This document shows positions 9,398-32,969 of a DNA stretch of 34,309 bases, in pieces; the first letter of the stretch is position 1, and every line of letters begins with the position of its first letter. The translations under genes and the position numbers were made by a program. The notes under the pieces were generated by a model, which saw only the letters and a program-made list of their open reading frames with translations, was not told where the DNA came from and made no database searches. The DNA comes from Patescibacteria group bacterium (lineage in GTDB: Bacteria > Patescibacteriota > Minisyncoccia > Phycocordibacterales > Phycocordibacteraceae), in assembly GCA_038064495.1 (NCBI GenBank), contig JBBTSZ010000002.1, positions 413,524 through 447,832 of the forward strand, in the 5' to 3' direction.

Positions 9398-9516
9398 GTG
9401 ACCCTACGGGAAGGTTCGCTTCGCTCTCGCATCGGTCACCCATAAGGCATTCGACTCCCCGTAGGGACTACAAACTGCAGCGGCCGTGAAGCTTATCCTT
9501 CACGCCTGGCACCTTT
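9398..9516 (-). repeat. tRNA-Glu 3'-end duplication (direct copy 9398-9410, inverted copy 9450-9466)
   Basis: GTGACCCTACGGG equals 9517-9529; TTCGACTCCCCGTAGGG is the exact reverse complement of 9521-9537. Confidence 0.85.
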
Positions 9517-9517
9517 G

Positions 9518-9589
9518 TGACCCTACGGGGAGTCGAACCCCGCTTCCATCCTTGAGAAGGATGTGTCCTAACCGATAGACGATAGGGCC
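9518..9589 (-). tRNA. tRNA-Glu(CTC)
   Basis: GGCCCTA/TAGGGTC acceptor, CATCC-TTCTCAA-GGATG anticodon arm, GGTTCGACT T-loop; CCA not encoded. Confidence 0.96.
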
Positions 9590-30999: not shown

Positions 31000-31045
31000 C
31001 ATTCCGCGGCTCGCCTCGCTGAGGCTTGGCGAAGCGGGTAGCTCA
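31000..31045 (+). repeat. Duplicate of tRNA-Asn 5' end interrupted by a 29-bp palindrome
   Basis: CATTCCGCGG[CTCGCCTCGCTGAGGCTTGGCGAAGCGGG]TAGCTCA versus CATTCCGCGGTAGCTCA at 31283-31299. Confidence 0.75.
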
Positions 31046-31049
31046 TATA

Positions 31050-31295
31050 ATGAAGCTGTATATTCTTAAAAGCGTTTCGTTTCCAAAAACGTATGTTGGT
31101 ATTACAGCAAATTTAGAGAGGAGGTTGAGAGAACATAACTCGGGACAAAGCACCTATAGCAAACGCTATAAACCATGGGAGTTGATTCATACAGAAGAAT
31201 TCGACACTATGTTTTTGGCTCGAATCCGTGAGAAGTTCTTCAAGACTGGTGCTGGTAGACGTGAAATTGCAAAGTTATTAGACATTCCGCGGTAG
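31050..31295 (+). CDS. Stand-alone GIY-YIG nuclease (81 aa)
   Basis: LYIL..TYVGIT.NLERRLREHN.G..Y.PWEL..E..AR.RE..FK; last codons and stop lie inside the tRNA 5' end. Confidence 0.92.
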   Translation: MKLYILKSVSFPKTYVGITANLERRLREHNSGQSTYSKRYKPWELIHTEEFDTMFLARIREKFFKTGAGRREIAKLLDIPR

Positions 31296-31319
31296 CTCAG
31301 TGGTAGAGCAGGTCGCTGT

Positions 31320-31873
31320 GGAGAAGGTTCCTGGTATACTCAAGTGTGTATGCCAGAGACAAGAACCTATGCCGACCGCCGAGAGTACTTGAAAGAGGCT
31401 GTTAAGAAGCGGCGAAAATTCCTTCGAGAAAAGGCTTGCGAGTACGGAGGCGGAAAGTGCATGATTTGTGGCTATAAGCGTTGTTCAGCTGCACTTGATT
31501 TTCACCACATCGATTCCAAAGCAAAAGAGTTTGGTTTGTCTGCAAATGGACTGACTCGCTCTTGGGAAAAGATGAAGGCTGAATTGGATAAGTGCGTCTT
31601 GATATGCGCCAACTGTCACAGAGAAGTACATGCAGGCATTGCGCAGCTTCCAACGGAAACGTTGGTTGAAAAACGAGGTGAATTCGGGGAAACCCTCACG
31701 CGAAAGCGCGGGCAATCCCGAGCCAAGCCTGTGCGAAAGCACAGGAAGGTGTAGAGACTATCCCGTAAGGGAGTACTTGGTCGCAAGATCTGGGAAGCGC
31801 CTCGCACCCACACTCATCAAGCGATGAACGGGTGATGATATAGTCCATACTTTCGGTAACGAAAGACCATATG
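31320..31873 (+). ncRNA. Group I self-splicing intron (554 nt) at tRNA position 35/36
   Basis: Exon ends in U, intron ends in G; IGS CGCAGC 31642-31647; P3 CGAGGTG/CGCCTCG; P4 TTCGGG/CCCGAG; P7 GACTAT/ATAGTC; P8 CACCC/GGGTG; P9 CTTTCG-GTAA-CGAAAG. Confidence 0.92.
31350..31754 (+). CDS. Intron-encoded HNH homing endonuclease (134 aa)
   Basis: CMICGY..LDFHH..CVLICANCHREVH zinc-finger HNH signature; starts in the P1 loop and reads into the ribozyme core. Confidence 0.9.
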   Translation: MPETRTYADRREYLKEAVKKRRKFLREKACEYGGGKCMICGYKRCSAALDFHHIDSKAKEFGLSANGLTRSWEKMKAELDKCVLICANCHREVHAGIAQLPTETLVEKRGEFGETLTRKRGQSRAKPVRKHRKV

Positions 31874-31920
31874 TAACGACTTGGTCGTAGGTTCGAATCC
31901 TACCCGCGGAGCTTGTTAGG

Positions 31921-31944
31921 AAAATCGCCCTTTGGGGCGATTTT
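31921..31944 (+). terminator. Hairpin/terminator after tRNA-Asn
   Basis: AAAATCGCCC-TTTG-GGGCGATTTT. Confidence 0.7.
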
Positions 31945-31949
31945 GCGTT

Positions 31950-32085
31950 ACGAGCTCCCGGAGTGAGCACCGCATGCTCACGAGTAGGATTCGAAGATGT
32001 TGCGAGCATTTAGCAAAGCAAAATCCACAACGTGTACAGGTCCTGTAAGTACCGAAAGCGTACTCGCGCTCTTACCCGCGGAACT
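31950..32085 (+). repeat. tRNA-Asn 3'-end duplication (inverted copy 31950-31995, direct copy 32070-32085)
   Basis: CGAGTAGGATTCGAA matches the reverse complement of 31892-31906 at 14/15; TCTTACCCGCGGAACT matches 31898-31913 at 14/16. Confidence 0.8.
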
Positions 32086-32111
32086 AGACATAACTACTAT
32101 TTTCAGTATAG

Positions 32112-32969
32112 TTGCCTCACGTGAAGCGCGCTCCATTGTTTGTTCTCCTTCTCGCCGCTTTCCTGATATTCAGCGGCTTTGTGTTCTGGGACCAATTTCC
32201 ATTCTTCCTCTCTGCTACTCAACCCGCAGCAGTAGTACATTCTGATAGCGCGACTTCAACACTTCCAACCATTCCAGAAGCACAACCCTTTCTCTTTCAA
32301 TACCTTGAGGTGGTTGATGGATGCGGTCCGTATTATCAGGGCACGTGTGTGAACATGCGCTCAGGTCCTGGAATTGAGTATGGAGTGGTAGAACGTCTAC
32401 GCACCGGTATGGTTTTGAAGATTGCAGGGACCGTACAGGGTACTGATGGCAAACAGTGGTACGAGATAGCGCAGGATTCCTCCATTCGTTATCCGGAACG
32501 CATTTCAAGCAAGTGGTACGTGCAAGCAGATGCAGTCACCGAGTTTAATGATGACGGCGATCATCGCATTAAGAAGGGTGATGCATTCACGACAACGAAG
32601 CGCATTGTCGTAGATCTCTCACAAGAAGTCCTCTATGCATACAATGGTGACATTCTGTATATGCAGGAGCCCATTTCAACCGGACTCGACTTTACACCAA
32701 CTCCACGCGGTACCTTTACGGTGTACGCAATGACTCCAAGTCGCTATATGCAAGGACCGCTCCCTGGCGTCTCCGCCCAAGCCTATGATTTACCTGGAGT
32801 ACCCTGGAATCTTTACTTCACACAAGATGGCGCCGTGATTCACGGGGCATATTGGCATGACCATTTCGGTCAGTCCTGGTCTCACGGCTGCGTCAACTTA
32901 TCGCCAAAAAATGCGAAACGTCTCTACGAGTGGGCTGAACTCGGAATTACCGTTACCGTCGTAAATTAG
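32112..32969 (+). CDS. L,D-transpeptidase (YkuD) with SH3-like domain
   Basis: N-terminal TM; VNMRSGPG..WYEI SH3b-like; IVVDLS, TPTPRG, IHGAYWH..SHGCVNL; start codon uncertain. Confidence 0.92.
   Translation: MPHVKRAPLFVLLLAAFLIFSGFVFWDQFPFFLSATQPAAVVHSDSATSTLPTIPEAQPFLFQYLEVVDGCGPYYQGTCVNMRSGPGIEYGVVERLRTGMVLKIAGTVQGTDGKQWYEIAQDSSIRYPERISSKWYVQADAVTEFNDDGDHRIKKGDAFTTTKRIVVDLSQEVLYAYNGDILYMQEPISTGLDFTPTPRGTFTVYAMTPSRYMQGPLPGVSAQAYDLPGVPWNLYFTQDGAVIHGAYWHDHFGQSWSHGCVNLSPKNAKRLYEWAELGITVTVVN

Follow-up and report, generated by a model that had tools for sequence, protein, structure and literature searches.

tRNA genes are classic landing sites of mobile DNA, and to our knowledge the actors that target them bring their own integrase together with a fixed attachment site. 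tRNA-targeting integrases typically leave direct repeats of the tRNA 3' end that start in the T-loop, and integration of the CTXphi/attC type leaves, in this order, a target copy, a short body, an inverted copy, a spacer and a target copy. Casposons duplicate 15 nt of their target, and some of them target tRNA 3' ends. The rtT repeats (RF00391) of the tyrT-tyrV operon have been known since the early 1980s: behind tyrV of Escherichia coli we find three tandem rtT units, each built as inverted copy, middle and direct copy. The inverted copy takes 10 nt from the T-stem and acceptor 3' strand of tRNA-Tyr, the GC-rich middle carries GCGAAGC and GCGCAGC, and the direct copy covers 29 nt, starting near position 59, passing CCA and reaching into the flank. 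The rtT RNA is reported to be released in the processing of the tyrT transcript (10.1101/2024.07.17.603846).

Here, we analysed a stretch of 34,309 nt of a Patescibacteria genome (the window), in which the tRNA-Asn(GUU) gene is followed by an inverted and a direct copy of its own 3' end. Like rtT, the family to which this arrangement belongs lies behind tRNAs, has the order inverted copy, core and direct copy, ends in a copy of the tRNA 3' end and occurs also in tandem. However, the sequences are unrelated (no RF00391 match at E up to 10), rtT belongs to one enterobacterial tRNA operon whereas the Patescibacteria family is found behind about 20 isoacceptors in 93/151 genomes of the order, and the Patescibacteria arm, unlike that of rtT, spans the whole of positions 54-74 and is split by a conserved hairpin. 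With tRNA-targeting integrative elements the family shares the 3'-end repeat starting in the T-loop, the intact tRNA and the distal location of the original end. It differs from islands bounded by attL and attR in its length (172 nt for the Asn locus), in the lack of cargo and of an integrase gene, none being found inside or beside the repeat-bounded Asn segment, in having an inverted copy and a folded core, and in the use of one core family for many tRNAs.

The attP site of CTXphi and attC are, like the present family, imperfect hairpins that carry the target in their stem, bulge out a side hairpin and have a variable or structured centre, and in both cases one strand appears to fold. In the present family, on the other hand, the stem is rewritten for each target on both strands, and the target is a tRNA gene instead of dif or attI. 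A conserved core site for a cognate recombinase is absent, as the stem differs with each of the about 20 isoacceptors, and we know of no cognate integrase for the family. MITEs and casposons resemble it as short, protein-less inserts within a duplicated target; the target-site duplication and the empty site in relatives that characterize MITEs are both found here (positions 60-74; tRNA-Gln(UUG)). Unlike in MITEs, the 'terminal repeats' are copied from the target and are not conserved ends of an autonomous element, and unlike in casposons, the duplication ranges from 8 to 36 nt and no Cas1 (PF01867) was found in the genome.

The 3' end of tRNA-Asn(GUU) and its copies

The tRNA-Asn(GUU) gene (31286-31912, plus strand) was reported by ARAGORN only with the intron option, as exon 1 (31286-31319), a 554-nt intron (31320-31873) and exon 2 (31874-31912); a default tRNA scan of the window called tRNA-Glu(CUC) only and not tRNA-Asn, and cmscan recognized the 3' half of tRNA-Asn as a weak match to the Rfam tRNA model. 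The intron contains a group I intron match (RF00028, 31551-31866, 70.1 bits versus a gathering cut-off of 50) and an HNH ORF (Pfam, 22.6 bits versus a cut-off of 21.4). T54, T60, the discriminator G73 and C74 of the tRNA lie at 31892, 31898, 31911 and 31912, respectively, and the gene encodes no CCA.

The following features all lie on the plus strand. The proximal copy of the 15-nt repeat (T60 to C74, 31898-31912) is the functional 3' end of the tRNA itself. Behind it, a spacer composed of a symmetric A-run, GC hairpin (31921-31944) and T-run (31913-31949 as a whole) forms the centre of a palindrome whose two halves are the antisense arm and the 3' end of the tRNA; the T-run consists of four T only, and a simple scan calls no terminator at 31921-31944. 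The whole antisense copy (31950-31995) ends at 31995 with the complement of the T-loop (ATTCGAA) and is made up of three parts: arm Y' (31950-31962), which is complementary to the acceptor 3' strand together with the discriminator and a few bases of flank and is eroded by one mismatch and one indel; helix hp (31963-31981), a 7-bp hairpin with a 5-nt loop that sits between the complements of tRNA positions 67 and 66 and splits the antisense copy; and arm X' (31982-31995), which is complementary to the 3' strand of the T-stem and to the T-loop, running from position 66 back to 54, and terminates in ATTCGAA. Then follows a conserved core S of 74 nt (31996-32069; 116.9 bits with the model R1 described below), comprising P1 (about 31998-32033) and the junction GUGUAC, P2 (32039-32053, loop UGUAA) and the junction GAAA, and P3 (32058-32067, loop UACU), with one mismatch in P1 and one in P2. 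The distal direct copy of tRNA positions 60-74 plus one base (32070-32085) is identical to 31898-31913 at 14/16 positions and lies 172 nt away from the proximal one, and it pairs with X' and Y' to form the closing stem P0. The positions that the earlier note had given for the T-loop start, the hairpin, the antisense copy, the 74 nt and the direct copy were all exact on re-reading.

No ORF of at least 60 aa lies wholly inside the 172 nt between the repeats, and the frames that overlap them (31758..32009 on the minus strand and 31997..32245 on the plus strand) extend past this segment. Folded as a single sequence, the Asn copy behaves like its shuffles (z = −1.28 and −1.38 for the plus and minus strands, respectively).

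When the 300 nt downstream of tRNA-Asn were shuffled 2000 times with preservation of dinucleotides, the inverted match was reached in 0, the direct match in 4 and both in 0 of the shuffles; chance fails to account for both Asn copies. The sequence was also supported by independent contigs from runs of three studies with 0-2 differences: the Logan contigs X1 (31885-32600), X3 (31883-32272) and X4 (31955-32386) showed no difference, and X7 (31921-32166) showed two. The agreement of contigs from three studies excludes an assembly artefact. The contigs of four DNA runs contained no joint skipping 31913-32085, and the contig joints at 31309-31881 and nearby stem from intron-less tRNAs of other organisms. 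A look-up of sequencing runs that carry 31700-32400 returned no RNA run. The palindromic arrangement at the tRNA-Asn tail is real.

The 74-nt core defines a folded family in the host order

A BLAST search with the Asn element detected relatives in 10/41 related genomes, in which copies of the local tRNA (Gln, Arg, Tyr or Ser) stand on both sides of the core. A covariance model, R1, was built on the RNAalifold structure of 11 copies. It gave three matches in the own genome (behind tRNA-Tyr, tRNA-Val and tRNA-Asn with 146.5, 138.8 and 116.9 bits, respectively), and found the family in 68/151 genomes of the genus and in 93/151 genomes and 83/132 genera of the order, with up to at least 19 copies in one order genome and some tandem pairs; among 150 other genomes sampled from the phylum, one had a weak match. 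The host order consists of ultra-small groundwater bacteria.

In the family fold of about 145 nt, the two tRNA-derived arms form the closing stem P0, the side hairpin hp lies within the 5' arm, and the core consists of P1, P2 (loop UGUAA) and P3 (loop UAMU) with conserved junctions between them. Among 97 distinct copies, 94.2% of the pair cells held standard pairs, compared to 39-43% when the partners were slid, both-sided changes were seen in 36/42 pairs, and 0/500 shuffles reached any of these measures (the alignments were fitted to R1, which favours the model; slid controls and compensatory changes in a free MAFFT alignment agreed with the fitted counts). The hp stem (helix 2) showed double changes in 7/7 pairs with 98.8% paired. 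Thus, all four helices, hp, P1, P2 and P3, covary. Between the Val and Asn copies, hp is only about 43% identical, compared to 91% for the core. The core helices contain 61 G.U as against 25 A.C, suggesting that the tRNA-sense strand is the one that folds, although in sequences that are kin such an excess is a leaning towards this strand. The order-wide conservation of junctions and helices points to a function for the folded strand rather than to a mere parasite. In addition, the motif GCGN(N)AGC, which a review describes as extraordinarily stable in DNA (PMC13037366), occurs in the elements at 2.24 per kb on the folding strand versus 0.7 per kb in the genome, and its reverse complement at 0.59 per kb.

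Two further structural ideas were tried and rejected. A possible pseudoknot that would pair GCGAG, at the beginning of P1, with CUCGC in P3 was dropped, as the variants instead covary inside P1 and inside the P3 hairpin, and a hammerhead-like core was dropped since the CUGAUGA box is absent as judged by eye.

Scanning 31880-32130 against Rfam (cmscan, E up to 10) returned a partial tRNA and two chance hairpin matches only, and the whole window at gathering score gave only the group I intron and one tRNA. A search of the literature found no account of the family. The suggestion that the process might be undescribed therefore holds as far as Rfam and the literature searched are concerned, but the E. 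coli rtT units have the same layout. The 74-nt stretch that had been taken as a spacer turned out to be the conserved and covarying core of the folded element.

Recurrence at other tRNA genes and two core classes

The own genome (703 kb, 98% complete) was surveyed for copies of tRNA tails. Of its 39 tRNA genes, 12 are followed within 350 nt by a perfect copy, inverted or direct, of 12 nt or more of their own 3' end. One of these copies forms a second element in the window, on the minus strand (9398-9468), behind the tRNA-Glu(CUC) gene (9517-9589, minus strand). Its layout is like that of Asn, with an inverted copy (9450-9468), a 39-nt core (9411-9449) and a direct copy (9398-9410); the inverted copy is exact over 17 nt and the direct copy over 13 nt, and in the shuffle control each was reached in 0/2000 cases.

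The cores fall into two classes. Class A is common to Asn, Val(GAC) and Tyr, and class B, which is longer, to Ser(GGA), Ile(GAU), Ser(UGA), Gly(GCC), Cys and others. The 39-nt Glu core scores no R1 match and would belong to class B, an assignment made solely by a 9-nt sequence motif that is also present in the tRNA-Cys and tRNA-Gly cores of this class. Both classes carry a motif at their 3' end, of which the genome has 14 occurrences, 11 of them in such tRNA trailers.

These results bear out the proposal of a recurring system at tRNA ends with endpoints in the T-loop, both by the genome survey and by the family boundaries given below; other tRNAs do carry the pattern, namely 12/39 genes in the genome and about 20 isoacceptors in the family, and comparisons of arms with tRNAs across loci agree with the view that each arm pair derives from its own tRNA. 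The description of the two window elements as unrelated in sequence applies to their tRNA-specific arms but does not extend to the stretch between the Asn copies, which is the conserved family core.

The antisense arm is a true inverted copy of the resident tRNA

In 75 of the 97 copies, a sense tRNA ends within 60 nt upstream. These tRNAs represent 19 isoacceptors, or 20 when counted with tRNA-Asn, whose intron-bearing gene was missed by the tRNA listing of the trimmed region. Four other copies follow another element, and the remaining 18 have no ARAGORN-listed tRNA upstream, among which two have a contig end within 5 nt and two more have less than 135 nt of upstream DNA. Several of these 18 copies follow a decayed stretch with a T-loop-like start, and their distal copy is canonical and paired.

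The origin of the arm was evaluated at 63 positions at which the tRNA has a G.U or mismatched pair, four mis-registered Gln(CUG) loci having been removed. The arm was the complement of the tRNA 3' strand at 56 positions; at 5 it had the sequence of the 5' strand of the tRNA itself and at the other 2 that of neither, and it also mirrored T-loop variants of the host tRNA. Both results indicate that positions 54 to 74, often together with some flank, are truly copied in inverted form in the arm. The 56/63 complements of the 3' strand led us to reject a 5' half of a tRNA, or a pseudo-tRNA, as the origin of the 5' arm. In 31/33 loci the acceptor 3' strand and its flank can pair with the antisense arm (−12 to −47 kcal/mol), and the centre of the palindrome is a terminator-like hairpin at 13 loci and a short loop at 18 loci.

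Insertion boundaries, CCA and an empty site

Among the 66 copies in which boundaries could be counted (nine more had no 8-nt seed), the direct repeat begins at T60 in 42, and at T54 in 5 copies of a variant lacking P3. It stops at C74 in 27 copies and one base further in 11, and a few repeats extend up to 21 nt into the flank. The usual length of the duplication is thus 15 nt, the same as in casposons, with the range given above. CCA is encoded at positions 74-76 in 15/64 distal copies, every one of them beside a CCA-less gene, compared to 3/64 in the tRNA gene proper (11 copies were too diverged for this count, and two mis-registered Gln(CUG) rows are within the 64). In the own genome, at least 10/39 tRNA genes encode CCA, and among the element-bearing ones only Tyr does so.

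Homologues of the YkuD gene downstream of the Asn element occur in 27 other genomes of the genus, none of which adjoins tRNA-Asn, and for this reason tRNA-Gln(UUG) was used for an empty-site comparison. The tRNA-Gln(UUG) gene of genome G165 is empty, i.e. the gene with its CCA directly abuts the flank, and the same flank lies behind the distal copy in the genomes G079, G095 and G146. Comparison of the empty with the filled sites identifies the block as inserted DNA. The original end of the tRNA is the distal copy, with CCA and flank, and the present tail of the tRNA (60-74) is the duplicate, so that the tRNA stays whole through the duplication. One junction lies inside CCA, between C74 and C75. 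By analogy with the tRNA-Gln locus, the Asn distal copy is probably likewise the original tRNA 3' end.

Movement of the core and candidate partners

On a tree of the cores (85 columns; poorly resolved, with 7/94 inner branches starred), the tRNA label changed 55 times (minimum 19; shuffled mean 60.2) and the genome label 80 times (minimum 51; shuffled mean 86.4). The Val and Asn cores of the own genome were closest to cores behind Ser tRNAs of another species, with 93% identity. The label changes indicate that core lineages switched tRNA many times and that both arms were rewritten each time; one core lineage is found behind at least 20 isoacceptors, its arms adapted to each. At a given tRNA, copies in different species often look inherited, as do the three Gln(UUG) copies that share one flank, indicating that movement is rare.

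The earlier note had named an integrase, a nuclease or a reverse transcriptase as the possible driver. No such partner was found: the genome, at 98% completeness, contains no reverse transcriptase, serine recombinase, IS110 DEDD, TnpB or Y1 transposase, and its one tyrosine recombinase is encoded about 400 kb from the Asn element. The suggested correlation with GIY-YIG genes proved weak in statistics that ignore kinship and genome size (Spearman 0.22 for 150 order genomes; Mann-Whitney p = 0.11 for GIY-YIG counts in element-bearing versus element-free genomes), and in genomes with 15-19 elements there is a single GIY-YIG match. R1 matched 0/51 viral contigs chosen by one core 15-mer, and in the contigs of four runs no intermediate, excision product or within-population polymorphism was seen.

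Discussion

On balance, we lean towards reading the Asn stretch as a slightly eroded copy of an uncatalogued family of target-copying, non-autonomous insertion modules of about 145 nt. Such a module would spread or duplicate at the DNA level and enter at a staggered break, 59|60 and 74|75. The antisense arm would be made on site when the target is copied through fold-back (a snap-back or template switch), nucleated at the small hairpin immediately behind the tRNA, and the tRNA-sense strand of the module would fold. At loci without a terminator in between, transcription from the tRNA promoter probably continues through the module, and the product may be a trailer RNA whose end resembles a tRNA acceptor/T-stem, like that of E. 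coli rtT RNA. Snap-back copying would agree with the anatomy, and the module presumably depends on host enzymes. Against this reading, no enzyme able to move the element was found in the genome, and fold-back alone fails to explain why hp sits in the middle of the arm or diverges far beyond the core. As a more tentative extension, the family might represent a class of mobile elements without fixed ends, whose arms are rebuilt forwards and backwards from the target, with rtT as a distant second example. Such a class would use only host replication and repair enzymes, with small and very stable DNA hairpins as fold-back primers.

Another possibility, to which we give serious but limited credence, overlaps with the insertion-module reading and differs from it on mobility: the element may be mainly a host-serving, rtT-like trailer RNA, transcribed along with its tRNA, folded by the stem that mimics a tRNA and released by tRNA-processing enzymes with a tRNA-like (N)CCA end. 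It would then multiply through local duplication and gene conversion alone and not transpose. The four covarying helices and conserved junction bases across the order, the preference for G.U over A.C (61 to 25) on the tRNA-sense strand and a closing stem that copies the acceptor and T stems all fit an RNA, whereas the Asn copy, folded by itself, does not stand out (z = −1.28). A spacer without terminator-like hairpin in 18/33 copies would allow read-through, but in 13/33 copies such a hairpin stands between tRNA and element. The CCA end of 15/64 distal copies is as expected of a tRNA-like RNA and equally of the resident gene's own end. The distal copy being canonical and paired even where the neighbouring tRNA part has decayed also speaks for a trailer RNA, as does the identical layout of E. 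coli rtT, whose RNA is reported to be released from the tyrT transcript (10.1101/2024.07.17.603846). Duplication alone, however, leaves unexplained how one core lineage came to stand behind about 20 isoacceptors with rewritten arms.

Three other explanations were considered. The order of parts in the element is that left by integration of the CTXphi/attC type, the same strand folds throughout with GCGN(N)AGC enriched on it, and the genome has one tyrosine recombinase, so that the element could be a folded single-stranded attachment site at which a Xer-type recombinase swaps one strand and replication resolves the product, P0 mimicking the double-stranded tRNA target. This is improbable, since a single recombinase with a single core site cannot serve about 20 targets, strand exchange in the T-loop would give the new tRNA the tail of the previous one and leave the arm opposite the exchanged one unrewritten, the target is no dif site, and no circular or phage form was found (none of the 51 viral contigs picked by the 15-mer matches R1). 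Direct repeats starting in the T-loop, as typical of tRNA-targeting integrases, could also be attL and attR of an integrase island left after deletion of its cargo, and larger inserts do stack at tRNA ends in this lineage: L026 has a gene between tRNA-Asn and the element, and G000 has about 900 nt between tRNA-Ala(UGC) and the element. Yet att sites have no inverted copy, no integrase lies inside or beside the element, one core stands behind about 20 isoacceptors, and the interval holds a conserved folded core in place of random leftovers, which contradicts such an origin and makes it the least credible of those considered. The long, near-perfect hairpin that is possible in 31/33 loci (−12 to −47 kcal/mol) would, finally, allow the antisense arm to regulate its tRNA by pairing with the acceptor 3' strand of the precursor, affecting folding, 3' processing or termination. 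We regard this as very improbable: the pairing of the arm with the distal copy is kept even beside a decayed tRNA part, the conserved core would be left without a role, and orthologous tRNAs without the element exist.

In very small genomes, as many as about half of the tRNA genes are followed by this gene-less module of 145 nt. If insertion copies the arms from the target, as in the insertion-module reading, retargeting would be achieved without a guide-RNA gene or a recombinase, and if a class without fixed ends exists, copying of tRNA tails would be general in bacteria and the origin of rtT would be explained. If the element is mainly a processed trailer RNA, it would form a large tRNA-linked small-RNA family in Patescibacteria, of which E. 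coli rtT RNA would be one case of a wider rule. Either reading accounts for the missing encoded CCA in element-bearing tRNA genes. In the annotation of such genomes, tRNA 'fragments' behind tRNA genes should be recognized as parts of an element.

The 5' side of tRNA-Asn also carries a copy of its own tRNA end. A copy of the tRNA-Asn 5' end (3 flank bases and positions 1-14), interrupted by a 29-nt insert, lies upstream of the gene at 31001-31046 on the plus strand, and this copy and 31283-31300 flank a GIY-YIG gene on both sides. It is part of the locus, separate from the 3' element.

Apparent displacement and decay of tRNA 3′ ends

At the conserved flank of tRNA-Gln(UUG), an intact tRNA lies ahead in the related genome G165 (locus L209), which represents the empty site, with the tRNA and CCA running straight into the flank. 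In two other genomes, G115 (L218) and G108 (L226), only a decayed stretch with a T-loop-like start precedes this flank, and no tRNA was found within 330 nt. The tRNA body and its former tail seem to have come apart at the T-loop. A 'pseudo 3′ half', starting with GGTTC[GT]A[AG] and ending in an acceptor-strand-like sequence, precedes about 12 elements, including those at L026, L089, L117, L124, L139 and L150 (C2:314830-314870 in G000, the genome of the window). At L026, a gene sits between the pseudo 3′ half and an intron-bearing tRNA-Asn. The distance from tRNA-Ala(UGC) of G000 to its class-B element, which has the longer core, is approximately 900 nt.

Variation within and between elements

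A core variant without P3 was found at L106, L137, L142 and L146 (5 copies), and also at L007 and L013; in this variant the direct copy starts at T54 directly after P2, so that the entire T-loop is repeated. Behind tRNA-Val(GAC) of G000 (C2:211700-211560), a class-A element runs directly into a class-B core that is present only as its 3′ half and has no end of its own, suggesting that a single tRNA received insertions nested in each other or one after another. Mini-hairpin motifs of the form GCGN(N)AGC lie in the spacers that separate tRNA from element (17 of 75) and in the elements themselves (30 of 97), including at P1 tips. Relative to the genome background, they are enriched approximately threefold on the folding (tRNA-sense) strand. 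In the window, a promoter-like site (TAGACA, 16 nt, TATAGT; 10 of 12 positions matched) at 32085-32112 starts on the final base of the distal copy and lies upstream of a YkuD-type L,D-transpeptidase gene.

The direct copy of the tRNA 3′ end in the rtT repeats behind E. coli tRNA-Tyr genes is well known. In E. coli K-12 (NC_000913.3, 1286300-1287240; L156), two shorter copies accompany it in each 178-nt rtT unit: 10 nt of the tRNA-Tyr 3′ strand in inverted orientation, and 9 nt from the 5′ side of the T-arm.

Duplications of tRNA 5′ ends, and introns

Ahead of the tRNA-Asn(GUU) gene of the window (31286-31912), a gene for an 89-aa GIY-YIG protein (31026-31295; Pfam, 54 bits) is flanked on both sides by direct copies of the tRNA 5′ end, 17 nt long and comprising 3 flank bases and positions 1-14 (within 31001-31300); the upstream copy is divided by a 29-nt insert containing GGCGAAGCG. 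This stretch looks like a nuclease cassette put into the D-arm region with duplication of the tRNA start. The anticodon loop of the same tRNA is split by a 554-nt group I intron (31320-31873; Rfam, 70.1 bits), inside which lies an ORF for a 136-aa HNH endonuclease (31344-31754).

In G000, tRNA-Ser(GCU), one tRNA-Met and tRNA-Thr(UGU) (C2:115347, C2:133241 and C2:545117, respectively) each have 13-16 nt of their own 5′ end copied directly about 55-70 nt upstream, with a small hairpin-bearing insert in between. These copies are a 5′-side counterpart of the 3′-side duplications. When introns were allowed, ARAGORN also called one of 203 nt in tRNA-Thr(GGU) and another of 555 nt at C2:514754-515402 of G000; the latter call is doubtful.
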